A stretch of DNA of 53,284 nucleotides from an uncultured Gammaproteobacteria bacterium (GCA_964362195.1 CAYICZ010000003.1:1-53284), one strand, 5' to 3'; positions 658-48,332 are shown, counted from the first letter of the stretch. Made by a program: numbers and translations. Notes: a model not told the origin generated them from the sequence alone.

Positions 658-686
658 AATATACAATAAAAGTAGCAATTATGCAA
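658..686 (-). promoter_or_regulatory. Sigma70-type promoter for tuf
   Basis: TTGCAT (686-681), 17-nt spacer, TG-TATATT (663-658). A 7-bp hairpin TACCAGC/GCTGGTA follows at 632-651. Confidence 0.6.
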
Positions 687-1191
687 GAGGTGAATTACTA
701 TTAGAGAAACTATAAAATCCACAAGTTTCAATTGCTTTCCTATGTACAAATGTGAGAAATGTTTCAAGATTAAAAATATTGGTTGGAAAATCCGTGATAT
801 TACAAGTCATAAGCAACATCTTTTTATATCGCATAATCATTGCACCAAGGAAAAAATCAGTTACTGAAACTTTTTTACCATCTTCCTTGTAAATTTCTGC
901 TAATTTTGTTGCATCTTGTGTAACCTCGCTAGTTATCGGAAGAAAGGCATCTACTATATCTTCTACATACTGACGTTTTTCTGCCAACTTCTTTTCATCC
1001 GAACCACCCTTGATAAACTCCGTTAAAACACATTCCAAAGTAACTAATACGCACCCATTTCCCTTTAATTCATTAAAAATATTCGCAAATTTTGCTGGGG
1101 CACTACTTGCATCGATAAATACAGTAGTGTCTAGAAGAATATGCCGATCTTTAGTGGCTGAGAGAAAATCTGAGTTTTTGATTATGTTCAT
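679..1191 (-). CDS. PIN-domain (VapC-like) ribonuclease toxin
   Basis: PIN acidic motifs: ILLDTTVFID, VLTEF, SVTDFFLGA, TCNITDF. Confidence 0.85.
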   Translation of the reverse strand: MNIIKNSDFLSATKDRHILLDTTVFIDASSAPAKFANIFNELKGNGCVLVTLECVLTEFIKGGSDEKKLAEKRQYVEDIVDAFLPITSEVTQDATKLAEIYKEDGKKVSVTDFFLGAMIMRYKKMLLMTCNITDFPTNIFNLETFLTFVHRKAIETCGFYSFSNSNSPLA

Positions 1192-6008: not shown

Positions 6009-9000
6009 TTAACCTTCTATTCTTGCTCTTTCCTCAGAAGTGGGAATCAGCCTGCCAATTATAACATTTTCTTTAAGCCCGATTAATTTATCTGATTTTC
6101 CCTGGATTGCAGCATCAGATAATATGGATGTAGTTTCCTGGAATGAAGCAGCTGACAGGAAGCTTTCTGTTTGAAGCGAAGCTCTGGTTATACCTAATAT
6201 GACCACCTCTGCTGTTGATGGCTCACCACCACCTGCTAAAACTCTTTTATTTTCATCTTCAAATCTTAACTGATCTACAATTTCACCCGGCAAAAGGTTG
6301 GTATCACCTTGAGATTCAATTCTTACCTTATCAGACATTTTTCTGACAATAACTTCAAAGTGTTTTTCATTAATAGGCACACCTTGTGATTCATAAACCC
6401 CTCTTACCTCATCAACAATATATCTTTGTGCAGCTTTTAGCCCCTGAATTCTAAGGATTTCTTTAACATCCATATGACCTGAGGCTAAAATAGATCCGGC
6501 ATCAATTAACTGTCCTTCCTCAACCAAAAGAGTTGAAGTTGCCGGAATAATATATTCTCTTTCTTCATGTGGCTTAGAAGTGGTTCTAACTCTGACTCTA
6601 ACTCCAAGTCCGCCTTCCACAATTGAAACCTTACCGGCAATTTCTGAAATAGGAGAAACTATTTTTGGCGTTCTGGCCTCGTATAACTCCTCCACCCTTG
6701 GCAAACCTTGAGTAATATCAAGTCCCACAATACCTCCGGTATGGAATGTTCTCATAGTTAGCTGAGTTCCAGGCTCACCAATAGCTTGTGCTGCCACCAC
6801 TCCAACAGGAGTTCCAATGCCAACTAATTCTCTTGTTGTTAAATCATAACCATAACAAAGTTTACAAATTCCATATTTTGCGCCGCAAGTTAGGGGAGAC
6901 CTTGCTATGACAATTTGTACTCCATTCTTTAGAATCTCCTGAATATTTTCTTCTATCATAATAATTCCAGCTTTAACTATTACTTTTCTAGTTTTTGGAT
7001 CTTTAATATCTTCCAAAACAACTCTTCCCAATAATTTTTCTCTGGCATTGTTAAAATTACTTTTTGAAATATCATAATCCAACCCTTTGGTAGTATGACA
7101 ATCATCCATTCTAATAATGACATCATGAGCTACATCAACCAATCTTCTGGTTAAATATCCGGCATCAGCAGTTTTCAAAGCTTTATCAGCCACACCTTTT
7201 CTAGCACCCCTAGCTGAGGTAAAGTATTCAAAAACAGACAAACCCTGTCTATAATTGGATTTGGTAGGTAACTCCACAATTTTTCCTGTTGGATCAGTTG
7301 ATAATCCTCTCATGGCTGAGAGTTGCTTTGCCTGATCTCTTGAACCACGAGCTCCTGCTTCTACCATCATTCTTATTGGATTCTCGGTTCCCAAAAAGTC
7401 CCAGGTAGCACTGGCTAAATCTTCGGTTATCTTAATCCAAACCATTTGACCAAGCTGAGATTTTTCTTGTGGAGTAATTAAACCTTTAGCTACGTTGGCT
7501 TCAATTTTCTCAATTTCTCTCTCTGCTTCATCTAGATATTTTTGCTTATCAGGCACCACTTTAGCATCAAAAAGAGAAATAGAAATGCCGGCAATTGTGG
7601 CGCCCCAAAAACCTATTCCTTTAATGTTATCTATAACATCAGATACAGCATCCCTGTCTAGAGTTTCCATGGCTTTAAGAATAATATCTCTGATAGTAAA
7701 TCCTTTAACAGCCTGATTCATAAATCTCATGTGAGGGGGCAGCACTTCATTAAACATGATTCTACCAACAGATGTTTCCAAATCTGCTTTTTCAATTCTA
7801 ACTTTAACTTTTTCCTGCAACTTAACCTTACCTAAACTGTAAGCTCTAATAGCATCTTCTTTTGAAGTAAAAAACTTCAACTTTCCATCTTTTGGCTCAT
7901 ACATTAAAGTGATGTAATAACAACCTAACGCCATTTCCCTGTTTGGCACAGTAATAGGTTGGGCATTAGCAGGTCCAAAGATATTTTCTTTAGCCATCAT
8001 TAAGGTTTTTGCTTCTTCCTGGGCTTTAGTTGAAAGAGGCACATGGACAGCCATTTGATCTCCGTCAAAATCAGCATTAAATCCTGCACAAACACAAGGA
8101 TGAACCTGAATTGCATTACCATCAACCAGCTTTGGGAAGAAAGCTTGAATACCCAGTCTATGAAGAGTTGGTGCACGGTTTATTAAAATCGGGTGGTCTT
8201 CGATAATCTCTTCTAAAATATCCCAAACCTCAGAGGGACGGGTTTCCAGAACATTCTTTGCCCCTTTAACATTTGAAGATAAACCGCGAGATATCATCTC
8301 CCGCAGGACAAACGGCTTAAACATTTCCAAAGCCATTTCTTTTGGTAATCCCACCTGATTTAACCTTAATTTTGGACCAACTACAATAACCGATCTTCCT
8401 GAATAATCAACCCTTTTACCTAGTAAGTTTTGCCTGAATCTTCCCTGTTTTCCGCGCAGCATGTCTGAGAGTGATCTTAAAATATGGGTTGTGACTGGCC
8501 CGCCACGTCTGGATGATCTGGAAGACGCATCAATCAGCGAATCAACAGCCTCCTGAAGCATTCTTTTTTCATTTCTTAAAATAATCTCAGGAGCACCAAG
8601 GTTAATAAGTCTGTTTAATCTATTATTTCTATTTATTACTCTTCTGTATAAATCATTTAAATCAGATGTAGCAAATCTTCCCCCGGGAAGTTGAACCATA
8701 GGACGAAGATCAGGAGGAAGTACCGGCAATACTCTTAAAATTAACCATTCTGATAAAATCCCTGCTCCTCTCATACCCTCAACGATTCTCAGTCTTTTGG
8801 TTGCTTTAATATGTTTTTGGCCTGTTGATTTTCTAACCTCATCCCGCAAATTTGCAGATAATTTATCTAAATCTATCTTTTGTAATACTTCCAAAAGAGC
8901 CTCTGCCCCCATACCAACTGTGGCAAATTCAGATACACCATATTCTGACAGCTTGTAATATTCTTCCTCGGATAAAAGTTTTAAGGGCATAACAGATTTA

Positions 9001-9698
9001 ACCAAATCAGAAACAGCTTTAAATATTCCTTCAATTTGACCGATTTCAACCATCAGATTATCTCTTAGCTTTTGAATTTCATGTCTATTTTTAAGTTCCA
9101 ACTCTTGTGATTCCAGCTCAAATTTCTCTTTTTCCACTTTTTTCTTAAGCTCTAAAACTTGCTTTTTAAGTAAGCTTTCTAAATCTTCAACATTTTTATC
9201 AAGAGCTTTTTTTGACTCCTCTATTTTTGCTGCCAAATCTTTTTCTAGCTTTTCCAAAGCAGCAGTTTTACCATCAGGATCAATCGAAGTAACCAGGTAT
9301 GAGGCAAAATAAACAACTGCTTCCAAATTCTTAGGAGATATATCCAAGATTAAGGATAATTTGCTTGGAGCGCCTTTAACAAACCAGGAATGTGCAACAG
9401 GGGAGGCTAAGCTAATATGACCCATTCTCTCACGTCTTACTTTAGATTGGGTAACTTCCACTCCACACTTATCACAAATTACACCGCGGTAGCGAATTCT
9501 TTTGTATTTTCCGCAATAACATTCATAATCTTTTGTGGGACCAAAAATATTCTCTGAGAAAAGCCCGTCTTTTTCAGCTTTTAGCGTTCTATAATTTATA
9601 GTTTCAGGCTTGGTAACTTCACCAAAGCTCCATGATCTAATCGCATCAGGAGATGCAACTGTTAACCTTAAACTTTCAAAATCCAACAGATCATTCAT
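6009..9698 (-). CDS. rpoC: RNA polymerase beta' subunit
   Basis: [12 protein letters not shown] catalytic motif, CYCGKYK...CDKC zinc site, [13 protein letters not shown]. Start placed at ATG 9698, just after the rpoB stop, rather than 9728. Confidence 0.99.
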
Positions 9699-9705
9699 AT
9701 TTTTA

Positions 9706-12700
9706 TTATGCAGCCTCCTTCTCGTCAACTATTTCAAACGGACTCTTTTCTGCTTTGATCTCTTCATCAGTAGCGGTTTCTGTCATACCAAGTGCCTGTT
9801 CCAGTTGGGCAACCTTCTGTATCATTTCCGGCTTTTCTTCTACCTCTGGAGCAGCCACGATTTTAGCACCCAATGTTTCAACTTGCAGACCCAGAGCTTG
9901 CAGTTCTTTAACCAAAACCTTGAAAGATTCCGGAATCAAAGCTTGTGGAATCTCAATACCTTTAACTATTGCCTCAAAAGCTTTAGCCCTTCCCACCACA
10001 TCATCGGATTTTATTGTCAACATCTCCTGCAAAATATGAGCTGCGCCATATGCCTCAAGCGCCCAAACTTCCATCTCTCCCAATCTTTGTCCGCCCATTT
10101 GTGCTTTACCCCCAAGAGGTTGTTGCGTAACAAGTGAGTAGGGACCGGTTGATCTGGCGTGAATTTTTTCCTCAACCATATGAATCAGTTTTAGAATATA
10201 GTTTCTTCCAACCACTATTGTATTTTCAAAAGCTTCACCGGATCTTCCGTCAATCAGCTTTACCTTACCATCTACTGGTAATCCTGCCTTTTTAAGTTCA
10301 GAAATTAATAAATCCTCAGAAATTCTCTCAAAAACTGGCGCAGCAATATTATAACCTAGCTTTTTAGCGGCAAATCCCCAGTGAGTTTCTAAAAGCTGTC
10401 CCAAATTCATACGGGATAGTACTGACAAAGGAGATATAATAATATCTATCGGTGTGCCATCTTCCAAATGAGGCATATCTGCAACCGGTAAAATCCTTGA
10501 AATTACTCCTTTATTTCCATGTCTTCCAGCCAGCTTATCACCCTCAGTGACTTTTCTCATTTGGGCCACCTTGACCTTAATCCTCATCAAAGTCCCTGTA
10601 TCCAGCTCATCCCCATCTTCACGGGATAAAATCTGAATTCCAATAACTGTTCCCCGCTCACCATGTGGAATTCGAAGAGATGTATCACGAACTTCTTTGG
10701 CTTTTTCTCCAAAAATGGCTCTAAGTAATCTCTCCTCTGCAGTTAGCTCTGTTTCACCTTTTGGCTGAACTTTGCCAACCAAAATATCATTTGGTCCAAC
10801 TTCAGCTCCAATTCTGATAATTCCCTTATCATCTAAATTTGCCAGTGCATCCTCAGATACATTTGGAATATCCCGGGTTAGCTCCTCTGGTCCCAGTTTT
10901 GTTTCAACAACATCCACCTCGTATTCTTCAATATGAATTGAAGTCAGTAAGTCTTCTTTGACTAATTTATCTGAAATAACTATCGCATCCTCATAACCTA
11001 ATCCCTCAAAACTCATATAAGCAATTAAAAGATTTTGTCCCAGCGCTAACTCTCCATTTTCAGTAGCTGCTCCATCAATCAAAAGATCACCTTTTTTCAC
11101 TTTTGTTCCAACTGATACAGCTGGTTTTTGAGAATAACAGGTTCCCTGAGGTGAATGAACAAACTTCTTAATCTCATATTTTATTTCTTCTTTCTTACCC
11201 TTGAGGGTAAGTTTTTTACCATCAACTTGAGTTATTAGCCCATCTTCGCTTGCACGAACTATCCTGCCCATATTATCTGCCACAATCCTTTCCATCCCTG
11301 TTCCCACAATCGGGGCATGTGGAATAAGTAACGGTACTGCCTGACATTGCATTTGAGTTCCCATTAAAGCCCGATTTGCATCATCATTTGCTAAAAAAGG
11401 AATAAGTGAGGCTGAAATTCCAAAAATTTGCTGAGGTGAAATATCAATTAATCTTACCATCTTTGCTTCACCTTCATAAAAGTTTCCCTGATACCTTAGC
11501 GGTACTCTTTCATCTTCAATAAATCCTTTGTCAGACACATTCACTGTTGCCTCTGTAACATGATAATCCTCTTCGTCGTCTGCTGAAATATACATAATAT
11601 CATCAGAAATCTTTGGTTTGCCTTTTTCCAAAGATACTCTTCTATATGGAGTTTCTAAAAATCCATATTCGTTAATACGGGCATAAAGCGCCAGGTAAGT
11701 CACCAGTCCAATATTTTGTCCCTCAGGAGACCGGATCGGATCAATTCTTCCGTATTGTGAATGATTAATATCCCGGACAGAAAAGCTGGCACGATCTCTT
11801 GTTATACCGCCTGCCCCCATAACAGAAAGCCGCCTTAAATGATCCAACTCAGAAAGTGGATTAACCTGATCTAAAATTGATGAGAGTTGAGATGAGCGGA
11901 AAAATTCATTGATAGCTGCAATTACAGGTTTTGCATTAATTAATCCTCCTGGTGATACTTCCTGATCAGCAGTTGTTAAACTCATCCTTTCTTTAATAAT
12001 TCGCTCAAGTCTTAAAACTCCAATCCTGAAAGCATTTTGCTGAACTAACTCTCCGGCACATCTGACACGTCTATTTGCCAAATGATCAATATCATCTACT
12101 TTGCCTTCCCTGTTTGTAAGCTTAATAAGATACTTAAGAGTTGCAATAATATCTGTTTTTTTTAAGATCCAATTTTCTTCCGTATTTGATACATCCAAAC
12201 CTAGCTTTTTATTTATCTTAAATCTGCCTACCTTTGTTAGATTATAGCGTCTGCTATTAAAAAACATTCCTTCTAAAAGAGCTTTTGCATTTTCTAACAC
12301 AACAGGATCTCCTGGCCTCATTTTTCTAAATATTTCCAAAAGAGCCTCATCAGTATTAGTTGTCGGGTCTTTAGCTAACGTTAAGTCAATCAATTTTTCC
12401 TCACCAGAATCTACATCACTAAATTGTTCTCTAATTTCTTCATTTTCCGAAAATCCAATAGCCCGAAGTAAAGTTGTCACAGCAAATTTTCTTCTTCGAT
12501 CAATTTTGGCAGTTAAAACACCAGTCCTGGAAACTGAAAACTCAAGCCATGAACCTCTATATGGCCTAACTTCAGCAGAATATAATCTTTTTCCTGTTAT
12601 CGGATCATCTGCTGCAGAAAAAAAGACCCCTGGGGATCTTACTAATTGGTTAATAATAACCCTTTCAACTCCATTAACAATAAAAGTTCCTTTTTCTGTC

Positions 12701-13496: not shown

Positions 13497-13760
13497 TTAT
13501 TTCTTTAAAGCTTCTAAGAATTGTTCTTCAGAAAAACCAAAACTTTTTACTTCTTTTAAAATTTTATTTCTTAGATCTTCATAAATTTCTTTGGTATGAG
13601 GAATGATTACAAAGTTTTTTTGACCTGGTTGTATTTTTATTCCAATCGGACTTTTTGCTTTGTAGTGTCCGCCTTTACCTTTAGATCTATCAATTGTAAA
13701 ACCTAGATTTTTAAGGGCTTTTTCTAAATCTTTAGAAGAGAATGCAGGAATATTAGGCAT
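13497..13760 (-). CDS. hicA: HicA-family mRNA interferase toxin
   Basis: SSKDLEKALKNLGF...KGGHY...VIIPHTKEI; dsRBD-like HicA pattern with the conserved His. Confidence 0.8.
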   Translation of the reverse strand: MPNIPAFSSKDLEKALKNLGFTIDRSKGKGGHYKAKSPIGIKIQPGQKNFVIIPHTKEIYEDLRNKILKEVKSFGFSEEQFLEALKK

Positions 13761-14044
13761 TATGCAGCAAAGAATAAATCAAAATTAGTAGGGGCTGCTG
13801 GTCTTAAATTTGTTATATGTTTAGTTTCTTGAATATAGACCACTTTGCTGGCATTTCTTCTGGGTACATCAAAATAGGTTAGTATTGCATCAGTTACATT
13901 TTCATGAAGCTTTGATAAATCCTCAATTTGAGTAAAACATCCAGGTAAATCAGGAAATTCCACGACATATCCTCCTTCTTTAACTTTACGGAGGCTAACT
14001 TCAACCTTTTTGGGAAGATGGTATTTTTGCGAAATATTTTTCAT
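13760..14044 (-). CDS. hicB: HicB-family antitoxin, short form
   Basis: KEGGYVVEFPDLPGCFTQIEDL...VTDAI. TAATG overlap with hicA; hicB precedes hicA. Confidence 0.85.
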   Translation of the reverse strand: MKNISQKYHLPKKVEVSLRKVKEGGYVVEFPDLPGCFTQIEDLSKLHENVTDAILTYFDVPRRNASKVVYIQETKHITNLRPAAPTNFDLFFAA

Positions 14045-14062: not shown

Positions 14063-15031
14063 TTAAGGATAATTTGCCACATTTTGATTATGTTCTTCTA
14101 AGGTTTTTGCATAATAGGAATTTCCTTTGGAATCATGATAATAATATAAATATGGAGTTGAAGGATCTGCATTAGCAACAGCAGTTAAGGATGCTAGCCC
14201 TGGATTACAAATTGGGGCGGGTGGGAAACCCGAATGAATATAGGTATTATAAGGCGAATCTATTTTTAGATCTTCACGGGTGAGTTGTTTTTTCCACCAG
14301 GATTTCTCATTCGCCTGGTATCCCAGGGCATACTGAATTGTAGCATCGGCATTTAAGCCCATGCCAATTTTAAATCTTTTCAAAAGAATAGAGGCAACTT
14401 GTTTTCTCACATCATCAGATCTTGCTTCCCGCTCCACAATTGAGGCCAATATCACTCCCTGATCTTCTGTTAATCCTAAAGCTTTAATTTTACTTTTTAG
14501 CTCATCAGAATATTTAAGGTCAAAAGTACTTTTAAGTCTTTGTGCAACTTGCGAAGCTGTATAATCTTTGGGGAATAGATAAGTATCAGGAAACATATAA
14601 CCTTCTTTGGCATATTTTAAGAATTCATCACCCAGCTTTTGTGCCATTTCTTCTACTCTCCAACCCTCAATTAGTGTTACCCAATTATCCAGCGGCTCCG
14701 AAGTTAGCATATTTAAAATTTCCCTGGAAGTCATTGATGGAGAAAGCCTGAAAGTACCTGGCTGAATTTTACTACCCAACCCTGATTGTTTGGCAAAAAT
14801 AGTAAATGCAAAAGTATTTTTAATAAGTTTTGCTTCTTTTAAATCATCAGTGACTTGAGAAAACCCTTCACCCTTATCAACAACAAAAACTATGCTGGAT
14901 TTGTCATTTGAAACAGTAGAAAGCTCAGAATTAATCCAAAACTTAAATCCAAAAAATAAAATAATAACTAGAAATATTACCCAAATTATTCTTTTATTGC
15001 GAAGCAACAAGCTCGTCTTATATTTTTTCAT
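14063..15031 (-). CDS. mltG: Endolytic transglycosylase MltG
   Basis: N-terminal TM, VTLIEG, EGYMFPDTY, LASIVEREA (catalytic Glu), SPYNTYIHSGFPPAPICNPG. Confidence 0.95.
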   Translation of the reverse strand: MKKYKTSLLLRNKRIIWVIFLVIILFFGFKFWINSELSTVSNDKSSIVFVVDKGEGFSQVTDDLKEAKLIKNTFAFTIFAKQSGLGSKIQPGTFRLSPSMTSREILNMLTSEPLDNWVTLIEGWRVEEMAQKLGDEFLKYAKEGYMFPDTYLFPKDYTASQVAQRLKSTFDLKYSDELKSKIKALGLTEDQGVILASIVEREARSDDVRKQVASILLKRFKIGMGLNADATIQYALGYQANEKSWWKKQLTREDLKIDSPYNTYIHSGFPPAPICNPGLASLTAVANADPSTPYLYYYHDSKGNSYYAKTLEEHNQNVANYP

Positions 15032-15392
15032 CTAAATAATTCTGCAAAATAATGCCGGCAGAATATGCATCATTTATTCTCCTTTTCTTTTTTGGAATAT
15101 TTAATTCTAACATCTCTCTTTTGGCGTTTTGTGTAGATAATGTTTCATCTGCTTCAATTATATCTACACCGGATTCTCTTAATTTTTTAATTGCTTTTTT
15201 TACTATTTTTCCCATTTTACCTTCCGGTAAACCAATTACTAGTCTGTCAAAACCCTCTGCTTCTTTTTTAATTTTATCCAAAAGATTTAAAAAATTGGTC
15301 CCTTCAATTGTTTTTAATGGAGAAGCCAACTCACCTTCGGAAACAGCCAGTCCAACTCTTTTCATTCCAAAATCTATTCCTAAATATTTCAT
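15018..15392 (-). CDS. yqgF: YqgF/RuvX RNase H-fold nuclease (pre-16S maturation / Holliday-junction-resolvase-like)
   Basis: YLGIDFGMKRVGLAVSE, VIGLP, DETLST, DAYSAGIILQNYLD. Confidence 0.93.
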   Translation of the reverse strand: MKYLGIDFGMKRVGLAVSEGELASPLKTIEGTNFLNLLDKIKKEAEGFDRLVIGLPEGKMGKIVKKAIKKLRESGVDIIEADETLSTQNAKREMLELNIPKKKRRINDAYSAGIILQNYLDEKI

Positions 15393-16049
15393 TCACAGTA
15401 TTTTACCTAAAACAACCAGCCTTTTAAAGTTTAAGCCTGGTGGAACACAGGTCATTAAAGAAACATATCTGCCTTGCTCTTCCGGAGCATTAATAACAGA
15501 AAGATCATTTGGACTCACCACTTTAAACCCGGTAACTTCATAAACAAATTTAGAACCCGGGGTTTCCAGAATAATCTGATCACCTTTTTTTAAATCAGGC
15601 AGTTTAGAAAATACAGCTTCTTTTAAGGAAAAAACTTGGCTTAAGGCAGAATGTCCGGAAATAAACAGATTTCCTTTTTCACCAGGCAGAGCAGATCCGG
15701 GCAATTGAGCTAAACTTTTTGATATATCATTGCTGTCAACCAATACATCTACTTTTTCTATCTTAAGTCTGGGGATAGATAAACTAAACTTAGTATAGTT
15801 AGGTTGAGTCTCTCTTTTTAAACTGGATACAAACTCAGGAAAGTTATCTTTATTATTAACAGAAACCCCCAAGATAGAAGCTTCGTTGCTATTCTGTGGG
15901 GTGATTAAATTACTTTCTAAATTTTGCCCAATTTGCCAAATCTCAAAAGAAATAATTGGCGCAACAACCTGTATCAATAAAAACATCCCGATTGCTAAAA
16001 ACCCCAGAGCTAAAACTTTGGCCGGAGATTTTACTAAAACACTGATCAT
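15393..16049 (-). CDS. Sortase
   Basis: N-terminal TM, LSIPRLKI, NLFISGHS (His), LMTCVPPG (Cys), RLVV (Arg). Confidence 0.92.
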   Translation of the reverse strand: MISVLVKSPAKVLALGFLAIGMFLLIQVVAPIISFEIWQIGQNLESNLITPQNSNEASILGVSVNNKDNFPEFVSSLKRETQPNYTKFSLSIPRLKIEKVDVLVDSNDISKSLAQLPGSALPGEKGNLFISGHSALSQVFSLKEAVFSKLPDLKKGDQIILETPGSKFVYEVTGFKVVSPNDLSVINAPEEQGRYVSLMTCVPPGLNFKRLVVLGKIL

Positions 16050-18196
16050 TTTAGTCCCACCTCAACTGTAATATTTTTTGTTAAAAATGGAAGCCTTTGC
16101 AAAAATGCAGGTAATTTAGGGATAATGCTGATATCAGAACCTAAAACATTATCCATTCCCCTTATCTGATCCAGGGCTCCTGAAACTGACTTTCCTTTTA
16201 TATCATTTTTGACTTTTTCTGTATCAATTTTAGGTAATAGTTTGGCTTTAAACTTTGCAAGAAAAACTATTTTCCCGCTTTTGTCTACGCTGGACACATC
16301 AGCCTGTGTTTCAGTATTAGATAAATCAAGCATAAACTCATCAGGCACTTGAGTTGTCACCAGTTTTGAAACTATCAACCTTAGATCTGAATCATTATAG
16401 GCAGTACCTGTATATTTTGCGCTCATGTTCAGGGAAAATTCAGATGCCTGATCATTAATATTCTTACTATAACTTTTACTTATAATTTGCTCGGACAATG
16501 CTTCCTGTAAAATTTTCTTTCCGGCAAGTTTTTCTTGCAGTTTCTGTTGCGCTTGCAACCTTAAATCAGATGAGACTTTTGCCAATAATCTTTTTTGATC
16601 ATCAGATGAAACAACTGTTACCTGTTTGCTTGTTCCACCTGAGAAATTCCCTTCAGCTTTAGCAGACACTTGCGAAGAAGAATAGCCACTGACAGTTAAT
16701 TCTGAAGCGGATGCCAAATTGCCATCTGCACCAATTGAAGAAGCATTCACTTGAGCATTAGTTTTACCAAAAGTAATTCCAGAATCCAAAGCAGACTGAG
16801 AAGCTATAGATATAGATGTATCTAGGGTAAATTTTTGACTTCCAGAACTAAGTATTGTTCCTTTGCTGAAGGATACACTATCAGATGTTTTATTATAGAT
16901 CACAACTGTCCCTTTGGCAGCATCCCCAACTTCCCGCCTACCAGAAGCGCTATCTTTCCCGGAACCTGAAACTTGCGTTTCAACTATCTGGCCGGGGATT
17001 ATTTTGGCGTCTTCATCAACTTTCTTTTGGTTAGGATCAGCAATGACCTGAGCATCTTTTTCCAAGATTTTAGGCTCTACAAAAATCTTGACATCAGCTT
17101 TTGGTATAAAAACTAATGCTGCTAAAATGAATAAAATTATAGCTATTACTCCCAATAAAATTGGTGATTTAACTAATCTTTTCGGAAGAAACTTTTTCAA
17201 ATTAAATTTATCTTTAGAGACAACTTCATCTTCAAAATCCGGAGCTTCCAAAAGGTTTGACTCCTCATCAGCTAAAATAGGTTCTTTTTTATCTTCTTCC
17301 TCTGGTTGCTTTGAAACATCACCCACCATAAAGCCAAAATTACCTCCTACTTCTATCTCTTCTTTTTTCTCTTTCGGCTCCGATTCTTCCTCATCTATTA
17401 TTACAGGTTTCCCGGCTTGTTTTTCTAGAGGTTTATCTGTGTAGGAAACATCTGCATTTAATTCTGATGCACCTGCTAAACAAACGCTTTTTATTTCAAT
17501 CCCTTCCCCCAAAATATCTATTTTCGGAAAGTGTAAAAAAGATAACTTGCTCATCCAGTTGTAGGATAAAAGCTGGCTTTTTAATTTCTCTAAATTAGAC
17601 TTTGAATCATAAATTAAAATTTTAGAAGGAAGGGTTTCAACAGAACTAAATGTGAGCAATGCTTTTTCCAGATCCACCCCGGAATTTTCACCTTTTTGTA
17701 TAACCTTTACCCCATCTAACTTTCCGGCCCTTACAACAGTTGTTGTGATATGATTTTCCTCAAATCCTGCCAGAATTGCAGTTGTTGGGACACCTTCCAG
17801 TTTTTCCAGAAAATTAACCAGTGCATTAGCAACTGCAACATATGCCATTGGGGTAAGTTCTAAATTTTTAACCAAACTTCTTAAGATTTTTAAATATTCA
17901 TCTTTTAGACTGTCATCTGAAAGCCAATGGCTTGGTACACCAAAAAGGATTTTTTGAGGTTCAACTTCCCTAATGCCTAAAACTGCATCCAAAAGTTTAT
18001 CAGCAACAGGAGCTAGCTCCTCTAACGAGGAGTAAGAATCCGAAGCTGTATCCAGAATCTTAAGATTTTTTCCATCAATAGTCCAAAGAGCAGCTGTTAA
18101 CTTCTCGTTACCAATATTTAAAGCAAAATAATACTCTTGCTCCACATCCTTTTTTGCAAAAGGCAATCGGGCAGAGAGTTTGTCTATAAAACTCAT
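16046..18196 (-). CDS. Bitopic protein: FtsA/PilM-like N-domain, acidic linker, TM, baseplate-J-like extracellular domain
   Basis: YFALNIGNEKLTAALW resembles an actin-fold first strand. TM ILLGVIAIILFILAALVFIP. AKGTVVIYN...F-L-TS-SI...VNASSIGADGNL resembles the baseplate J/gp47 pattern. Confidence 0.55.
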   Translation of the reverse strand: MSFIDKLSARLPFAKKDVEQEYYFALNIGNEKLTAALWTIDGKNLKILDTASDSYSSLEELAPVADKLLDAVLGIREVEPQKILFGVPSHWLSDDSLKDEYLKILRSLVKNLELTPMAYVAVANALVNFLEKLEGVPTTAILAGFEENHITTTVVRAGKLDGVKVIQKGENSGVDLEKALLTFSSVETLPSKILIYDSKSNLEKLKSQLLSYNWMSKLSFLHFPKIDILGEGIEIKSVCLAGASELNADVSYTDKPLEKQAGKPVIIDEEESEPKEKKEEIEVGGNFGFMVGDVSKQPEEEDKKEPILADEESNLLEAPDFEDEVVSKDKFNLKKFLPKRLVKSPILLGVIAIILFILAALVFIPKADVKIFVEPKILEKDAQVIADPNQKKVDEDAKIIPGQIVETQVSGSGKDSASGRREVGDAAKGTVVIYNKTSDSVSFSKGTILSSGSQKFTLDTSISIASQSALDSGITFGKTNAQVNASSIGADGNLASASELTVSGYSSSQVSAKAEGNFSGGTSKQVTVVSSDDQKRLLAKVSSDLRLQAQQKLQEKLAGKKILQEALSEQIISKSYSKNINDQASEFSLNMSAKYTGTAYNDSDLRLIVSKLVTTQVPDEFMLDLSNTETQADVSSVDKSGKIVFLAKFKAKLLPKIDTEKVKNDIKGKSVSGALDQIRGMDNVLGSDISIIPKLPAFLQRLPFLTKNITVEVGLK

Positions 18197-18236: not shown

Positions 18237-19961
18237 TCATGCAATCTGAGCGCGTATTCTTCTGATTCCTGAGGAAATTGCTTCTTCTTTGGTAATTTTA
18301 ATTTTGCCAATCACTCCGGTGTGTTCAACATGAGGACCGCCACAAAATTCTAGCGAGTAATAACCACCTCTATCAGGCCCTATACCATAAAGACTAACCT
18401 TGTCTGCATATTTTTCATTAAATAAACCAATCGCATTCATTCTTTTTGCCTCATCTAGACTAACAATCATATGATCCACCTTTAAATCTTCTTGTATTTT
18501 TTTATTTATTATTTCCTCAGTTTTTTTAATTTCTTCATCAGTCATTTTTTCATCATAAGAAAAATCAAACCTTAATCGCTCACTCGTTATGTTTGAACCT
18601 TTTTGAAAAACGCTTGGCCCTAAAACATCCCGCAAAGCCTGGTGTAAAAGATGTGTGGCAGTGTGGTATTTAGTGACTACTTCACTGTGATCTGCCAATC
18701 CCCCTTTAAACATCCCTGCAGATTGTGTTCTTGAAAGTTCCCTGTGTTTTTCAAATTCTGCCCTAAATTGCTCACGATCCACCTGCTGACCTTTTTCTTT
18801 AAACAGTTCTTCAGTTAACTCTACAGGGAATCCATAAGTTTGGTATAAATCAAAGGCAATTTTTCCATCTATTTTTTCTATTTTCTCAACTTCTTTTAAA
18901 CCATGGTCCAGTGTTTTAGAAAACCGGTCAATTTCTTCTTTAATGACTTCTTTATTCACCTTAGTTAACTCTGATAATTTATCTAAATCACTTCCAAGCT
19001 GTTTCATTTTTACAGCCGAACGTCTGAGCAATCTTCTTAAGATATAACCTTGTAATTTATTTGAAGGCCTTACTCCATCAGCTATTAAAGCCACAGCTGC
19101 TCTCATGTGATCAGCAATAATTCTCATTTCATGAGAATTATCCGAATACTGATTGCCTGTAAATTCCTGAAGCAACTGAATTGTATTTTGGTAAATATCA
19201 ATCTTAAAAATATCCGGATTATTATTTGAGGCAGCTGTTAGTCTTTCTAACCCTCCCCCAAAATCTACATTTTTTTGGGAAAGTTCCTTTAATTTTCCAT
19301 CCTTTTTTTGATATTGGATAAAAACAGAATTGCCAATTTCTAAAAACCTGCCGCAATTACAGTTTGGGTGACAATCTTTGCCGTATTTTTCATCATGAGA
19401 AATACCAAAATCATAAAATACTTCACTATCTGGTCCGCCAATTTCTCCCTCCGGCATTTTATCTGGAGGGCCACTTCTTGACCACCAGTTTTTTTCTACA
19501 CCATAAAAATAAATATGGTCATCATTTAATCCCAAACTTTTATATATTTCATATGACTCGTTATCTTTTGGAACTGAATCATTTCCTTCAAAAACAGATA
19601 CATATAATTTTTCTTTTGGTAGTCCTAATTCTTTAGTTAAAAATTCCCAGAACCATTTTAACTGGTCTGCTTTAAAATAATCACCAAGTGACCAGTTTCC
19701 CAACATCTCAAAAAAAGTAGTATGTCTGTTATCTCCCACCTCTTCTATATCTTCTGCCCGGAAACAGGGTTGGGAATTAACCAGTCTTTTCCCTTCAGGG
19801 TGCTCTTGGCCTAAAAGATAGGGAACAAGCGGCTGCATGCCGGATGAGGTAAAAAGTGTAGTGGGGTCATTCTCCGGCACTAACTTTGCCGGCGCAATTT
19901 CTTTATGTCCTCTCTCCACAAAAAATTTAATAAATTTGTCTCTGATGGTTTTCGAATCCAT
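18237..19961 (-). CDS. alaS: Alanine-tRNA ligase, compact form without C-Ala
   Basis: TTLFTSSGMQP, RHTTFFEMLGNWSLGDYFK, DFGGGLER, HTATHLLHQAL and FCGGPH editing motifs. Confidence 0.97.
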   Translation of the reverse strand: MDSKTIRDKFIKFFVERGHKEIAPAKLVPENDPTTLFTSSGMQPLVPYLLGQEHPEGKRLVNSQPCFRAEDIEEVGDNRHTTFFEMLGNWSLGDYFKADQLKWFWEFLTKELGLPKEKLYVSVFEGNDSVPKDNESYEIYKSLGLNDDHIYFYGVEKNWWSRSGPPDKMPEGEIGGPDSEVFYDFGISHDEKYGKDCHPNCNCGRFLEIGNSVFIQYQKKDGKLKELSQKNVDFGGGLERLTAASNNNPDIFKIDIYQNTIQLLQEFTGNQYSDNSHEMRIIADHMRAAVALIADGVRPSNKLQGYILRRLLRRSAVKMKQLGSDLDKLSELTKVNKEVIKEEIDRFSKTLDHGLKEVEKIEKIDGKIAFDLYQTYGFPVELTEELFKEKGQQVDREQFRAEFEKHRELSRTQSAGMFKGGLADHSEVVTKYHTATHLLHQALRDVLGPSVFQKGSNITSERLRFDFSYDEKMTDEEIKKTEEIINKKIQEDLKVDHMIVSLDEAKRMNAIGLFNEKYADKVSLYGIGPDRGGYYSLEFCGGPHVEHTGVIGKIKITKEEAISSGIRRIRAQIA

Positions 19962-19975
19962 GAAGGTATTATACC

Positions 19976-20233
19976 CTAGAGTACCTTTTTATAGAATCTT
20001 TTAGGTTTTAGTTTAGAACCTTTTTTAATAAGCCCTGTGACCAAAGATGAGGTTGTCCCAATTGGTTTTTCGATATCCTCTGCCAAATCTTCACCGGTTT
20101 TTAAAACTTTATTTAATTTATTTAAAGCTTTTTTTAAATCTCTTAAAATAAAAAATACCTGAATTCCTGTAATGCTTAAAAATATAGATAAAAGTAATAT
20201 TAAAAATACTAAGGCAATCTGCAGGAAATCCAT
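19976..20233 (-). CDS. Small membrane protein (TM plus coiled coil, DUF948-like)
   Basis: N-terminal hydrophobic helix, then LRDLKKALNKLNKVL coiled coil; a -10 hexamer lies 8 nt upstream. Confidence 0.6.
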   Translation of the reverse strand: MDFLQIALVFLILLLSIFLSITGIQVFFILRDLKKALNKLNKVLKTGEDLAEDIEKPIGTTSSLVTGLIKKGSKLKPKRFYKKVL

Positions 20234-20252
20234 AGGCTATCAATATACCATA

Positions 20253-20891
20253 CTAGCGTTTTAGAAAAACAGTTCTTTCTATCTTTGTTTCTTTCCCGCT
20301 TTTGGAAGTTGAGACAATAACAATACTATTTACATTATCAGATAATTTCATTTCCTGGGAAAATTTCCCGGATGAATCAACCTGGATTTCCTGATTGTTT
20401 ATTGTCACCTTTGCCTCTGTATCTGTTCTTCCTAAAACTGTCACTTCTGCCTCAGACACACTTTGTTGATCAAGCGGTGCTTGTACTTCCAAAAATGGTG
20501 CTCCTACTAAAAATCTATATTCAAACCAAAGGTAGGCAAAAAAAATTATGATTAGAACTAAAATAGTTGAACCTAAGGCTTTGGCCGGGGTTATTTTAAA
20601 TTTTCTTTTATCTAAAGGGTTGCTGAAAGACTCCAAAATTCTTGGTGGATTTTTCCCTTCAGAAAATTCCCTTCTATAAACTGCCAGGAGCTTTTCCGTA
20701 TTCAGCCCCAAGAATTTTCCGTAATTCTTGATAAATCCCTGGACAAATGTTTGAGGCGGGAGTTTTTGATATTGACCATCCTCCAAAGCAGATAAAAGTT
20801 CTTTTCTAATTTTGGTAGCTTTTTCTATTTCATCAAGAGTATAAAATTTTCTTTCTCTTTCTTCTTTTAAAACTTGTCCAACAGTTCTCAT
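20253..20891 (-). CDS. RodZ-like HTH membrane protein
   Basis: TVGQVLKEER...TLDEIEKATKIRKELLSALE...FVQGFIKNYGKFLGL, a TM, and a C-terminal Ig-like domain; near ftsK. Confidence 0.8.
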   Translation of the reverse strand: MRTVGQVLKEERERKFYTLDEIEKATKIRKELLSALEDGQYQKLPPQTFVQGFIKNYGKFLGLNTEKLLAVYRREFSEGKNPPRILESFSNPLDKRKFKITPAKALGSTILVLIIIFFAYLWFEYRFLVGAPFLEVQAPLDQQSVSEAEVTVLGRTDTEAKVTINNQEIQVDSSGKFSQEMKLSDNVNSIVIVSTSKSGKETKIERTVFLKR

Positions 20892-27371: not shown

Positions 27372-27602
27372 ATGCAAACACAGCAAAGGGCAATTATGAA
27401 CATTTCCATGCCTCCTGCTATGGCAAAAAGGGTAACTAAAATGGCCAAAGAAGAAAATAAAACTAAAAGTGAATTTATAAGAAAAGCTATCAGAATTTAT
27501 GAGTTTAAAAGGGATTGGGCAAAGATTAGAGCTTGGGGAAGGGAAACAGCTCGTAAGATGAATATTAGGACATATGATGATGTTGAGCGGATTGCTGGAT
27601 GA
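27372..27602 (+). CDS. CopG/RHH antitoxin
   Basis: IMNISMPPAMAKRVTKMAKEENKTKSEFIRKAI is a ribbon-helix-helix. Start placed at 27372, downstream of the -10. Confidence 0.85.
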   Translation: MQTQQRAIMNISMPPAMAKRVTKMAKEENKTKSEFIRKAIRIYEFKRDWAKIRAWGRETARKMNIRTYDDVERIAG

Positions 27603-28027
27603 GGATAGTTTTAGATACTAATGTTTATATTGGGGCAGCTCTTCAAGGAGAGTTAACAGAGGATATTCTAGAGTGGATAACTGAAAATCCAGATGTTTAT
27701 CTAATAATTTCAGAAGAAATACTACTTGAGATAGAACGAAAACTCCAGGAAAAATTTCACTGGTCAGCAGAAAGAATCGTGCTTTTTCTAAACAGAATTA
27801 GAAAACTAGCTGAGATAGTAACACCAATTGAAAAATTAGATATTATTAAAAGAGACCCTAAAGATAACAAGATTTTGGAATGTAGCTTAGCAGGAAATGC
27901 TGATTTAATTGTAACTGCAGATCAAGACCTGATTAAGCTGAAAAGTTTTAAAGGAATTGGAATTATTCATCCAAAAACCTTTTCCTGGACATTTCCAGAA
28001 TATTTTAAGAAGATTAAAGAAAATTAG
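27599..28027 (+). CDS. PIN-family toxin (VapC-like)
   Basis: MRIVLDTNVYIGA, ILLEI, RDPKDNKILECSLAGNADLIVTADQDL. Confidence 0.92.
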   Translation: MRIVLDTNVYIGAALQGELTEDILEWITENPDVYLIISEEILLEIERKLQEKFHWSAERIVLFLNRIRKLAEIVTPIEKLDIIKRDPKDNKILECSLAGNADLIVTADQDLIKLKSFKGIGIIHPKTFSWTFPEYFKKIKEN

Positions 28028-30838: not shown

Positions 30839-31090
30839 ATGAAAAAGTATAAAAAATACATTACTTCCAAGTCTGATGTTATGGGTGGAACACCCTGTAT
30901 TGTTGGAACCAGAATACCTATTGCAGTCATTGTAGCACGTCTGAAAGAAGGCAATACCATTGAATCAATTCAACAAGGATATCCTTGGGTACCCTTAAAA
31001 AATATAAAAGGTGCTGTTAATGAATTGGTTGAAAAACTAAGCTCTACCAGGGATGCCTCGGAAATTTTACAAACACAAGCTGTTGCTTGA
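30839..31090 (+). CDS. DUF433-family antitoxin
   Basis: ITSKSDVMGGTPCIVGTRIPIAVIV...EGNTIESIQQGYP. Confidence 0.9.
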   Translation: MKKYKKYITSKSDVMGGTPCIVGTRIPIAVIVARLKEGNTIESIQQGYPWVPLKNIKGAVNELVEKLSSTRDASEILQTQAVA

Positions 31091-31409
31091 TGAAGGATTT
31101 TATTACAAAAAAGATCTGCCCATTACTAACAGCAGATTTGATGTCAAACATGTTGCTGGAGATTATAAACAAGGCGCATCTTCTGATTTCAAAGTATATG
31201 AACTTGCGAAAGTTGAAGGTCGGATTCTTATCACTCTCAATATAAAACATTTCAAACCACTGGCTTCCACAAGCAAATCAACAGGAGTAATTGGAATATC
31301 TCCAAATCTATCGCTTGATCAAATTGATAAAAAGCTAACAGCTCTTTTAAATAAATCCACCAAAAAATCCCTGCTTGGAAAACTGACAACAATTAGTGGG
31401 GAAGGCTAG
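31053..31409 (+). CDS. DUF5615-type PIN-like toxin
   Basis: KLLLDEG, SDFKVYELAKVEGRILITLNIKHF; paired with DUF433. Confidence 0.82.
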   Translation: MPRKFYKHKLLLDEGFYYKKDLPITNSRFDVKHVAGDYKQGASSDFKVYELAKVEGRILITLNIKHFKPLASTSKSTGVIGISPNLSLDQIDKKLTALLNKSTKKSLLGKLTTISGEG

Positions 31410-40460: not shown

Positions 40461-41103
40461 GTAATACTTCATTTAAACTATTTAATAATTTATCTGCATG
40501 ACTAAAATCTTGTCCCTTTGTATATTGGCTGGGGATTGCAAAGACTTTCATACCAGCAGCCTTCCCTGCCTCAACACCCTTTGGTGCATCTTCCAATACT
40601 AAACATGCATCCGGACTAACTCCCAATTTTTCAGCTGCCAGCAAATATACATCAGGAGCAGGTTTACCATGTTCCACCTCTTCAGCTGAGGCAATAGCAT
40701 CAATTAATGAACCTATTTTAAGTCCGTCTATTATTATTTTGATGGTTTCTAATTGAGAGCTTGAGGCAATGGCAATTTTATATCCATCTTTTTTAAGATT
40801 TACTAATAACTCCCTTAAACCTGGTTGTGCAACTACATTGTTTTTTAGCAGCTGTTTTATCTTTTCTTGTTTTGCTTGAACCAACTCTTCAGCAGAAATT
40901 GGCAGATTAAATCTAACCACCATATCTTTGGCCCCATCAATATCAGGAATACTTATATATCTTTTGGCATTTTCCTCTTCTGTTAGATATTTGCTGTATG
41001 TTTTAAATACAAGATTAAAAGCCTTGAGATGCACTGGCTCTGTATCAACCATCAACCCATCCATATCAAAAAGCACTGCTTTAATTTTTTTCATATTAGA
41101 CAA
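40450..41103 (-). CDS. HAD-family phosphatase
   Basis: LFDMDGLMVDT, IASSS, GKPAPD, VLEDAPKG. Confidence 0.93.
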   Translation of the reverse strand: MSNMKKIKAVLFDMDGLMVDTEPVHLKAFNLVFKTYSKYLTEEENAKRYISIPDIDGAKDMVVRFNLPISAEELVQAKQEKIKQLLKNNVVAQPGLRELLVNLKKDGYKIAIASSSQLETIKIIIDGLKIGSLIDAIASAEEVEHGKPAPDVYLLAAEKLGVSPDACLVLEDAPKGVEAGKAAGMKVFAIPSQYTKGQDFSHADKLLNSLNEVLPNL

Positions 41104-42070
41104 CCGCTGATTCTAGGAAGTTTAATTCCTTTTTGGAAGTATCAAAAGAGACTTTGATCCCAATTGGCATTGGGATATTGACAGTAAAATGCCCAAAATC
41201 CAAATTTGCCATTATTGGAAAATCATAATCTTTTAAAATATCTAAAACCATCTCTTTTGCAGTTGGTTCAACAACATCTTTCTCCCTGGCTGGTTTTATG
41301 TATTTTATTTTTCCGATTAACATTCCGGAAATTTTATCCAAAATTCCCAAATATTTTAGCTGAGTTAAGTATCTCGCAGTATTGTGTAATGGTTCTCCAA
41401 CTTCCTCCCAAAATAATATAGCCCCTGCAAAATCCTCCTTAGGTGAAATATATTCTGTGCCGGCTAAATTAACAATTAAATGTGCATTCCCCCCAATCAA
41501 ATGTCCTTCTGCTTTTCCTTTCTTCCACTCTTCCCAATCTGATAATGGTCTTATTATCCCGGGAGCTTCTGCTTTTGTTAAAAACTTTAAGAAAAATTCT
41601 TTATCTAAAGCCACAGAATTATCTTGATCTTTTCCAGAAGCTCCGCCAAAACCAAAAGTCACATCATCCATATGAAATCCAACTATACCTGTTTTTGTAA
41701 AAATTGCCAGATGATATGCAGTCATATCAGACATACCAATAAATGGTTTGGGGTTATGAGTTATTAGTTCGTAGTTAAGATGCTCAAGAACTGAGATTGC
41801 GGAATATCCGCCTGTTTGAGCCATAATAGCTTTAATATTTTTATCAGCAAACATAGAGTTAATATCCTCTGCTACCTCCTTTGGAGTTCCAGCCATCCAC
41901 CATCTTGTCTTACCTATTGTTTTCCCCTCTTTAATTTTAAAACCCATATCTTCTATAAGTTTTTTCCCACGTTCATAGTTTTCTCTAAAAGACGGTAAAA
42001 CAGGTAAAGAAGAGGCAACAATTCCAATTGTGTCTCCTTTATTTAATCTTTGAGGCTTGATAATTTTCAC
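41096..42070 (-). CDS. S66-family LD-carboxypeptidase (LdcA/MccF-like)
   Basis: IKPQRLNKGDTIGIVASS, TGGY, GMSD (Ser), WEEV (Glu), FGH (His). Start placed at GTG 42070, with TATAAT 6 nt upstream. Confidence 0.9.
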   Translation of the reverse strand: MKIIKPQRLNKGDTIGIVASSLPVLPSFRENYERGKKLIEDMGFKIKEGKTIGKTRWWMAGTPKEVAEDINSMFADKNIKAIMAQTGGYSAISVLEHLNYELITHNPKPFIGMSDMTAYHLAIFTKTGIVGFHMDDVTFGFGGASGKDQDNSVALDKEFFLKFLTKAEAPGIIRPLSDWEEWKKGKAEGHLIGGNAHLIVNLAGTEYISPKEDFAGAILFWEEVGEPLHNTARYLTQLKYLGILDKISGMLIGKIKYIKPAREKDVVEPTAKEMVLDILKDYDFPIMANLDFGHFTVNIPMPIGIKVSFDTSKKELNFLESAVV

Positions 42071-42089
42071 TGCTCCATTATACAAAAAC

Positions 42090-42299
42090 TCATGATTTAC
42101 TGCAGGTCTTGCAGTCTGATATGTGTGTGGCTGCGATATAGACGGCTGATACCCCAACCAAAATATAGACAATCTTCTCAACCATTGGCCAGGAACCTAA
42201 GACAGTATTAACCAGGTTTAAATTAAATAAAGCCCAAAGACCCCAGTTTAAACCACCAACTACCAACAGGGCAAATGCAACATAATGAAGTGCTTTCAA
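42090..42299 (-). CDS. DUF378-family small membrane protein
   Basis: LLVVGGLNWGL...NLV...IVYILVGVSAVY. TTG start follows SD AAGGAGGTGA. Confidence 0.88.
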   Translation of the reverse strand: MKALHYVAFALLVVGGLNWGLWALFNLNLVNTVLGSWPMVEKIVYILVGVSAVYIAATHISDCKTCSKS

Positions 42300-48288: not shown

Positions 48289-48290
48289 CT

Positions 48291-48318
48291 AACCCCTACA
48301 CCCTGTACCCTAAACCCT
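48291..48318. repeat. Degenerate 7-bp tandem repeat (NNACCCT-type, 4 units)
   Basis: AACCCCT ACACCCT GTACCCT AAACCCT, immediately before TATAAT (48321-26). Confidence 0.65.
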
Positions 48319-48332
48319 AGTATAATGTATCC

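Follow-up and report, generated by a model that had tools for sequence, protein, structure and literature searches.

In this work, we analyzed a 53,284-nucleotide (nt) contig of an uncultured bacterium (GCA_964362195.1 CAYICZ010000003.1:1-53284; the window hereafter, meaning the whole stretch at its full length) and show that one of its genes encodes a 716-amino-acid (aa) bitopic membrane protein, with an FtsA-derived actin fold devoid of nucleotide motifs on the inside and a module of a baseplate-wedge-like fold on the outside. The protein belongs to a family of Patescibacteria membrane proteins shown here to occur in both Microgenomatia and Saccharimonadia. Our preferred reading, to which we assign a probability of about 0.45, casts the protein as a trans-envelope coupler, comparable to FtsA-FtsN, PilM-PilN, or MreB-RodZ, that acts in wall growth or division. 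An earlier note on this DNA had proposed a domesticated baseplate-like domain tied to an actin-like module, heading a sortase-yqgF-mltG operon and possibly serving as an envelope or host-attachment apparatus.

Two folds joined across the membrane

The N-terminal region (residues 1 to 260) was modelled by AlphaFold2 with a predicted local distance difference test score (pLDDT) of 93.3 from an alignment of 78 sequences. Foldseek returned 729 PDB matches to this model at E <= 0.001, and among the matches listed (50), all were ASKHA proteins. PilM gave the best structural match (5eq6, E 3e-9, TMq 0.61), followed by BT_3980, EutJ (TMq 0.57), ROK kinases, PPX/GppA, and FtsA. As modelled, the domain is an ASKHA fold with a minimal 2 x RNase-H-like core. 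The phosphate-1 Asp position is taken by N, E, or Q, with D in just 2 of the 78 homologues, and neither a phosphate-2 DxGGG motif nor an adenosine GGG motif occurred in any of the 78. Where the unfused FtsA-like partner protein described below reads DVGGGTTD and CGGGA, the window protein reads AGFEENHI and IYDSKS, respectively. Since the nucleotide-binding motifs have been lost across the fused family, we concluded that the domain would serve as a noncatalytic scaffold and not as an ATPase. Invariant among the 78 homologues are P190, W214, F220, H222, P224, and K225, giving the pattern W..KL.FLHFPKIE.

The N-terminal domain is a derivative of an FtsA paralogue, not FtsA itself. Residues 1 to 260 were not matched by the Pfam FtsA, PilM, or MreB models, nor by PilM_2 (PF11104); in an hhalign comparison with the FtsA-like partner, the regions of the FtsA insert (1C/SHS2) fell in gaps; and the gene lies between alaS and a sortase gene rather than beside ftsZ. 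With respect to PilM, only generic fold matches were obtained, and the pilN-pilO genes of the window (48333-49519) are on the other strand.

The C-terminal ectodomain (residues 365 to 716) was modelled with a pLDDT of 96.2. Its Foldseek matches in the PDB at E <= 0.001 were baseplate wedge proteins of the J/gp6/gp47 type, plus one local match to the GlxA beta-barrel. The wedge proteins came from phi812, XM1, diffocin, Mu gp47, A-1(L), phiCD508, and Pa193 (E 1.3e-6 to 9e-4, ~340 columns), and the named top matches in BFVD were nearly all Baseplate J or baseplate wedge proteins. A Foldseek prob of 1.0, at E 1e-6 to 1e-4, was reached by wedge proteins of six baseplate structures and by Baseplate J models of BFVD. 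Superposition on the wedge proteins was poor (TM-score 0.20 to 0.25, root-mean-square deviation > 20 A): the sub-domains and their order agree and their mutual arrangement differs. The window protein itself scored 17.5 bits with Pfam Baseplate_J (PF04865), under the 21.1-bit cut-off, the barrel being the sole part matched. Three relatives (P0005, P0033, and P0043) scored above that cut-off, at 25 to 30 bits; 12 of 25 family members matched Baseplate_J at E <= 0.01 (best E 1.7e-7), with no second family recurring; and phrog_6, "baseplate wedge subunit," matched relatives at E ~1e-8 (2e-8). PHROGs gave no match to the window's own ectodomain, no NCBIfam model matched the 716-aa protein, and PDB sequence searches with the protein and with the family profile returned nothing meaningful. 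The likeness to baseplate J is real but remote, at profile and fold level only. Searches of 50,697 phage genomes by tblastn and scans of IMG/VR viral contigs, which are sensitive only to fairly close sequences, found no relatives. A likeness this remote, with no phage record matched in sequence, does not establish that the domain was recently taken over from a phage.

Between the two domains lie an acidic linker, whose length differs among homologues, and a single transmembrane (TM) helix. From the K/R-rich stretch ahead of this helix, the actin fold is placed in the cytoplasm and the baseplate-like domain on the extracellular side. The linker contains a short motif in which G288, F289, G292, and D293 are each retained in 19 to 24 of 25 aligned homologues, and the motif recurs as GFVEGQDV in an unfused 514-aa relative (P0042). 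Many of the public homologues (P0001-P0044 and P0202-P0221) are incomplete, being cut off by a contig edge on one side or the other of the linker. Apparently, assemblies break in the linker, and pipelines then annotate the halves as separate proteins.

Much of what the earlier note had read from this gene was borne out. Its actin-like N terminus and baseplate-J-like extracellular region both hold at the level of the fold, the latter with a TM-score of ~0.23, as does the topology of an acidic linker followed by one TM helix. The cytoplasmic actin-like module that it described stands as a fold, but one whose ATP-binding motifs have been lost. The domestication that it inferred for the outer domain goes beyond these results.

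Fused and split genes at a conserved position

An exhaustive HMMER search with the family returned 5,398 clusters (50% identity) at E <= 1e-3, of which 1,339 reached E <= 1e-30. The best 150 of the 5,398 clusters were mostly 700 to 800 aa and aligned over nearly their whole length. Distant relatives of the ectodomain (E 1e-6 to 1e-13) are ~550 aa long, with named records mostly from Saccharibacteria/Saccharimonadia, and in these proteins a highly conserved, STAS-like N-terminal domain of ~95 aa replaces the actin fold. Their loci, here called Saccharimonadia type, have the order alaS ... [FtsA-like, 424-432 aa]-[ectodomain gene]-ruvX-mltG-LysM/CHAP-obg, with the gene for a LysM/CHAP wall hydrolase coming after mltG. 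The FtsA-like partner retains the nucleotide motifs GLDIGTS, DVGGGTTD, and CGGGA, and among solved structures it is nearest to FtsA (7q6f, E 1.7e-16) and then to PilM. The profile of the window N-terminal domain aligned with this partner by hhalign (prob 97.1, E 5.9e-11, 228 columns), and the segment LPSRILL...W..L.F..P is common to both. Since a split pair occupies the same alaS / ruvX-mltG position in Saccharimonadia, the 716-aa protein represents a gene fusion of that pair, that is, of an FtsA paralogue and a STAS-like/TM/ectodomain protein. A third arrangement was found at locus L086, where a separate, degenerate 319-aa actin-fold gene (prob 91.8) precedes a 514-aa ectodomain gene, whose product has a shortened N-domain and the GFVEGQDV motif; mltG overlaps the ectodomain gene with no ruvX between them. 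The fusion, the intermediate form at L086, and the constant position argue that the actin-fold and baseplate-like parts function together.

Conservation of the neighbourhood was assessed in 80 species-representative loci, mainly from Daviesbacteria, with Chisholmbacteria and other Microgenomates making up the rest. The gene order ftsK-sua5-rodZ-like-small TM protein-alaS-[716-aa gene]-sortase-ruvX-mltG-(ribF)-rpoB was highly conserved among them. In 66 of the 74 loci with at least 900 nt downstream, ruvX-mltG was retained there. The sortase gene was the next recognised gene in 60 of the 74, followed by ruvX and then mltG in 57 of these 60 and overlapping the 716-aa gene homologue by 4 nt in 35 of the 60; ruvX-mltG lay directly downstream without a sortase in 9 of the 74 loci, and neither was present in 5. 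On the upstream side, alaS was immediately adjacent in 66 of the 68 loci with enough DNA (50 on the same strand and 16 on the opposite strand). A further Microgenomates locus (L085), whose homologue is 34% identical, retained the order alaS-gene-sortase-ruvX-...-mltG-rpoB. The sortase is missing from Saccharimonadia-type loci and from ~9 Microgenomates loci, and the linkage to mltG persists in the distant Saccharimonadia-type loci: the sortase is a Microgenomates-only insertion, and the mltG linkage is deeper.

Departures from this order were seen at L085 and L056. At L085, a thymidine/pyrimidine-nucleoside phosphorylase gene (8920-10212) stands between ruvX and mltG, and the ruvX-mltG junction is thus not inviolable. 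At L056, the locus inspected from a sub-lineage (also L049, L053, and L055) that has lost sortase-ruvX-mltG, a gene for a 287-aa membrane-anchored protein (10201-11064) overlaps the 3' end of the family gene; an AAFGDS motif read by eye suggests that this protein may be an SGNH/GDSL-type hydrolase.

In the window, the start codon of the sortase gene lies inside the stop codon of the 716-aa gene (ATGA, within ctaaaATGAtcagt), ruvX abuts the sortase gene with a gap of 0, and mltG and ruvX overlap by 14 nt (Table 1). The MltG/YceG and RuvX/YqgF proteins passed the curated Pfam and NCBIfam cut-offs. Upstream, alaS ends 40 nt from the 716-aa gene on the same strand. No terminator-like sites were seen on the minus strand from ftsK to ribF. 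Promoter-like matches were at chance level over the whole scan, and the best in the gap between alaS and the 716-aa gene, which was also the sole match there, agreed at 9 of 12 positions. The 716-aa gene is probably a member of a long transcription unit and not its head, likely cotranscribed with alaS upstream and with sortase-ruvX-mltG downstream.

The sortase has His133 (its single His), Cys201 (in LMTC), and Arg210, and none of the NCBIfam sortase class models reached its cut-off. No protein with a sorting signal was found in the 53-kb window, the one motif match being a spurious antisense open reading frame (ORF) inside pnp. Contractile-tail or type VI secretion system (T6SS) partners (gp25/W, gpI, tube, sheath, or spike) were absent from the window and from 86 related loci. 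All other annotated ORFs of the window were housekeeping or toxin-antitoxin genes, the former including those for EF-G, rpoB/C, alaS, ftsK, RNase J, PNPase, IF-2, nusA, dnaK/J/grpE/hrcA, lepA, murJ, and tpiA.

Several statements of the earlier note about the locus agree with these data, namely, the ATGA coupling to a sortase gene followed without gaps by yqgF and mltG, which ORF coordinates and profiles confirm, and the lack of other phage genes nearby. Conservation of the linkage held for ruvX-mltG, in 66 of 74 loci and in Saccharimonadia-type loci, but not for the sortase, whose link is lineage specific. That the 716-aa gene heads the operon is not supported, given the position of alaS, the lack of a terminator-like site, and promoter matches at chance.

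Table 1. Features of the window, with positions counted from its first nucleotide
Feature	Position	Strand	Basis or remark
716-aa gene: actin-fold domain, linker, TM helix, and baseplate-J-like ectodomain, fused	16046..18196	-	ORF
Cytoplasmic ASKHA (actin-like) domain, reduced, residues ~15-250	17447..18154	-	AlphaFold2 and Foldseek
Acidic, variable cytoplasmic linker, residues 251-345	17162..17446	-	Net charge -11
Short linear motif G-F-[VMI]-x-G-D-[IV] in the linker, residues 288-294	17315..17335	-	Conserved among homologues
Single TM helix, residues 346-364, N terminus inside	17105..17161	-	Hydropathy peak 3.4; K/R-rich segment before
Extracellular baseplate-J-like ectodomain, residues 365-716	16049..17104	-	AlphaFold2 and Foldseek
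Beta-barrel sub-domain, residues 421-522	16631..16936	-	PF04865 positions 17-110 of 255, E 0.0026
Sortase, membrane anchored, 218 aa	15393..16049	-	PF04203 76.6 bits
ruvX/yqgF, 124 aa, pre-16S rRNA nuclease / Holliday junction resolvase-like	15018..15392	-	PF03652 82 bits; TIGR00250 47.3 bits (cut-off 43.25)
mltG/yceG, endolytic transglycosylase, N-terminal TM, 322 aa	14063..15031	-	PF02618 260.6 bits; TIGR00247 200 bits (cut-off 103.4)
alaS, upstream flank of the conserved alaS ... ruvX-mltG cluster	18237..19961	-	PF01411 379 bits
85-aa TM protein	19976-20233	-	Just upstream of alaS
RodZ-like protein (HTH_25, TM, and Glucodextran_B-like C-domain)	20253-20891	-	Upstream of alaS
pilN	48333-48917	+	pilN-pilO group, 46912-49519
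pilO	48914-49519	+	pilN-pilO group, 46912-49519

Other features of the window touch on these subjects. In most Microgenomates loci, the genes for the RodZ-like and 85-aa TM proteins keep their synteny with the module; the window contains no mreB. Further wall genes on the minus strand encode an LD-carboxypeptidase (Peptidase_S66), the lipid II flippase MurJ, and a LytR-CpsA-Psr ligase (41096-42181, 44901-46535, and 51179-52369). A HicB/HicA toxin-antitoxin pair (13497-14044, minus strand) separates mltG from the riboflavin kinase gene. At this point the pair is missing in most related loci, and L032 and L074 have a hicB-like ORF on the opposite strand; the pair seems to have entered the conserved cluster as a mobile insertion. 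Several genes of the PIN-domain and DUF5615 types, which are likely parts of toxin-antitoxin modules, are dispersed among housekeeping operons at 27599-28027 (+), 31053-31409 (+), and 679-1191 (-). The pilN-pilO genes are preceded by a gene for a 458-aa protein instead of pilM, which is an uncommon arrangement for a type IV pilus platform. This 458-aa protein was considered as the missing PilM or as a relative of the window N-terminal domain and rejected (hhalign prob 0.2 to the N-terminal profile, with weak TPR matches only).

The window sequence comes from a groundwater metagenome and is contained in groundwater DNA metagenomes only. Its closest relatives are Daviesbacteria, within Microgenomates. 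Many related loci (L001, L006, L008, and ~35 others) are labelled "uncultured Gammaproteobacteria bacterium" in records that are GTDB representatives (TPA_asm, binchicken/SRP co-assemblies), and are collinear with and 40 to 62% identical to Daviesbacteria. The Gammaproteobacteria label of these records looks like a placeholder or error.

A proposed coupler in wall growth or division and its alternatives

How such a coupler might work can be outlined from its parts. The actin-fold part would make protein-protein contacts in the cytoplasm, and the linker motif perhaps docks onto the actin-fold domain or a paralogue. On the external side of the membrane, the ectodomain, with a fold that elsewhere oligomerises into baseplate wedges, would supply a scaffold, and this scaffold may position or regulate wall enzymes: the glycan-strand terminase MltG everywhere, plus the sortase in Microgenomates. 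The coupler would be active during wall growth or division. We favour this role because the neighbours of the module include mltG, LysM/CHAP, sortase, RodZ-like, and ftsK genes, the last two lying upstream of the module in the window itself, and because its partner is an FtsA paralogue.

Functional data for a counterpart are available from transposon-insertion sequencing (Tn-seq) of Southlakia epibionticum in coculture (Wang et al. 2023, PMC10633639, Tables S1/S2). Genes were called essential (ES), nonessential (NE), or growth defective (GD) at P0/P1/P2. The ectodomain counterpart SEML1_0655, annotated "baseplate J/gp47 family protein" (1671 nt), was NE/ES/ES, with normalised reads falling from 373 to 34 and 24 (PMC10633639). 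Its neighbour SEML1_0656, annotated "PilM" and assigned to KEGG K03590 (the FtsA orthology group) and to Pfam FtsA, was NE/NE/GD, with 2427, 660, and 221 reads (PMC10633639). Among the flanking genes, calls were ES/ES/ES for alaS (SEML1_0657), NE/ES/ES for RuvX (SEML1_0654), NE/NE/NE for MltG (SEML1_0653), and GD/ES/ES for a LysM protein (SEML1_0652) (PMC10633639). Both SEML1_0655 and SEML1_0656 carry core and Patescibacteria-enriched flags, and ECOD assigns SEML1_0655 a SpoIIAA-like (STAS) N-domain, a beta-barrel, a G3P-like domain, and a "gp6 C-terminal domain III" (PMC10633639). Elsewhere in the Southlakia genome, ftsZ has a canonical ftsA beside it (SEML1_0174/0175), and a canonical pilM adjoins a pilN-like gene (SEML1_0104/0105) (PMC10633639). 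Given this separate true ftsA and pilM, the module represents a third actin-fold system. The main text of the study does not mention the SEML1_0655/0656 pair (PMC10633639), and beyond its supplementary tables we found no literature on the family. According to these data from one Saccharibacterium, the counterpart of the ectodomain gene is required for growth in coculture.

Several considerations count against a coupler in wall growth or division. SEML1_0655/0656 were equated with the window family by annotation, gene length, and a synteny identical to that of L081 and L084, not by sequence alignment; the sequence link from the window family to the Southlakia-type pair runs through the equivalent Saccharimonadia-type loci L081 and L084. 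MltG was nonessential and the ectodomain gene required, so the two are not simply one obligate unit, and growth in coculture makes wall growth and host interaction inseparable in such data. Polar effects on ruvX, itself NE/ES/ES, could contribute to the phenotype of the gene upstream. The chromosomal position is also less telling than it appears, since the module was inserted into an alaS-ruvX-mltG cluster older than itself. In Bacillus subtilis, yrrK/ruvX adjoins yrrL/mltG without a gene of the 716-aa type, and the adjacency may be historical; alaS presumably stands beside ruvX-mltG in that organism as well, and we take the same cluster to be present in Actinobacteria. Finally, the biochemical function of the protein is a prediction and the mechanism of the coupler an inference, and with a rigid-body TM-score of ~0.23 to baseplate J, wedge-like oligomerisation is an extrapolation.

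An alternative is a host-contact apparatus, with the ectodomain assembled into a ring or adhesive platform where epibiont and host meet, the actin fold anchoring it from inside, and the sortase attaching accessory surface proteins close by. The baseplate fold otherwise serves contractile-injection and adsorption machines, and the flags and coculture requirement of the annotated Southlakia counterpart fit such a role. However, no tube, sheath, spike, gp25, or gpI partner lies near any locus examined, and the gene is a single-copy core gene in a housekeeping neighbourhood whose other members are wall and division genes. The family also has slowly evolving motifs (GGTSK and TGKKxxGxxAKG), unlike the hypervariability usual for host-recognition proteins. 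We consider this apparatus unlikely, and nothing in the results speaks specifically for the host attachment that the earlier note had in mind.

It may also be that the neighbourhood is uninformative: the module, perhaps as a membrane scaffold of some other process, would serve the envelope or signalling in a way that concerns neither peptidoglycan nor the host, and would only be hitch-hiking in the ancient alaS-ruvX-mltG cluster. That cluster mixes a tRNA synthetase, an rRNA nuclease, and a glycan lyase; ruvX-mltG neighbours were lost in 5 of 74 loci, with a different gene in their place at L056; and the Tn-seq phenotypes of MltG and the ectodomain gene differ. Yet the position has been retained over two Patescibacteria classes and three gene architectures, including the mltG overlap in L086, and we hold mere hitch-hiking to be improbable.

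More doubtful still is a Patescibacteria-specific trans-envelope organelle, in which an FtsA-derived element inside would be wired to a ring or array of wedge-fold ectodomains, related by descent to phage and T6SS baseplates, and would organise a wall-remodelling zone or a host-contact or feeding site. If true, cells would here employ the baseplate wedge fold independently of any contractile machine.

GspL has a cytoplasmic actin-like domain, a TM helix, and an outer domain, the layout expected if the module were to serve a type IV pilus, competence, or secretion machine as an accessory platform, with PilM fused to a PilN/GspL-like partner. PilM is the best structural match of the N-terminal domain, the Southlakia partner is annotated "PilM," and type IV pili are prominent in candidate phyla radiation (CPR) bacteria (PMC6744442). 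Such a platform is nonetheless very unlikely, given that the loci examined have no neighbouring gene for a pilin, PilB/T/C, or PilN/O, that pilN-pilO of the window lie 30 kb away on the other strand, that Southlakia has a separate canonical pilM-pilN, that the unfused partner is nearer FtsA than PilM in sequence, and that the ectodomain does not match PilN/PilO/GspL folds. The Pam pilus system of CPR bacteria (bioRxiv 10.64898/2026.03.03.709456) was considered and set aside as unrelated: it has different proteins and donor-strand exchange, with no actin-fold or baseplate-J component.

Comparison with known systems

Patescibacteria account for much of bacterial diversity, and how they build envelopes, divide, and hold on to hosts is mostly uncharacterised. 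With thousands of sequence clusters, the module described here is a large and widespread one that has gone uncharacterised, and its annotated Southlakia counterpart is critical for fitness. Its fused and split forms predict that an FtsA paralogue and a baseplate-like membrane protein work together, and it would be a rare cellular, noninjection use of the baseplate wedge fold.

In design, the window protein resembles FtsA-FtsN, PilM-PilN, and MreB-RodZ, each of which couples a cytoplasmic actin-superfamily domain via one TM helix to an extracytoplasmic domain, and GspL, which likewise exists in a fused form. It differs from FtsA-FtsN, PilM-PilN, and MreB-RodZ in its ectodomain, which is baseplate-J-like and not SPOR, PilN/O ferredoxin-like, or RodZ_C, and in its actin fold, which is without the 1C/SHS2 insert and nucleotide motifs; the likeness is drawn from sequence and models. 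This type of ectodomain has not earlier been linked to a design of actin fold and bitopic partner. With the Baseplate_J family (T4 gp6, Mu gp47, P2 gpJ, and TssF; PF04865), the protein shares local fold and domain order over ~340 columns (Foldseek E ~1e-6). Unlike that family, it is a membrane-anchored, cellular, single-copy protein of 716 aa in a housekeeping context without tail or baseplate genes.

The nearest comparison is the Southlakia pair SEML1_0656 and SEML1_0655, which shares its ectodomain annotation and gene size class with the aligned relatives of the window protein, and which has the same alaS / ruvX-mltG position and an actin-fold partner. The pair differs in consisting of two genes, one for an FtsA-like protein with ATP motifs and the SHS2 insert and one for a membrane protein with a STAS-like N-domain. 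Set against it, the window protein has a reduced, motif-less actin fold fused on where the membrane protein of the pair has its STAS-like domain, and an inserted sortase gene lies downstream.

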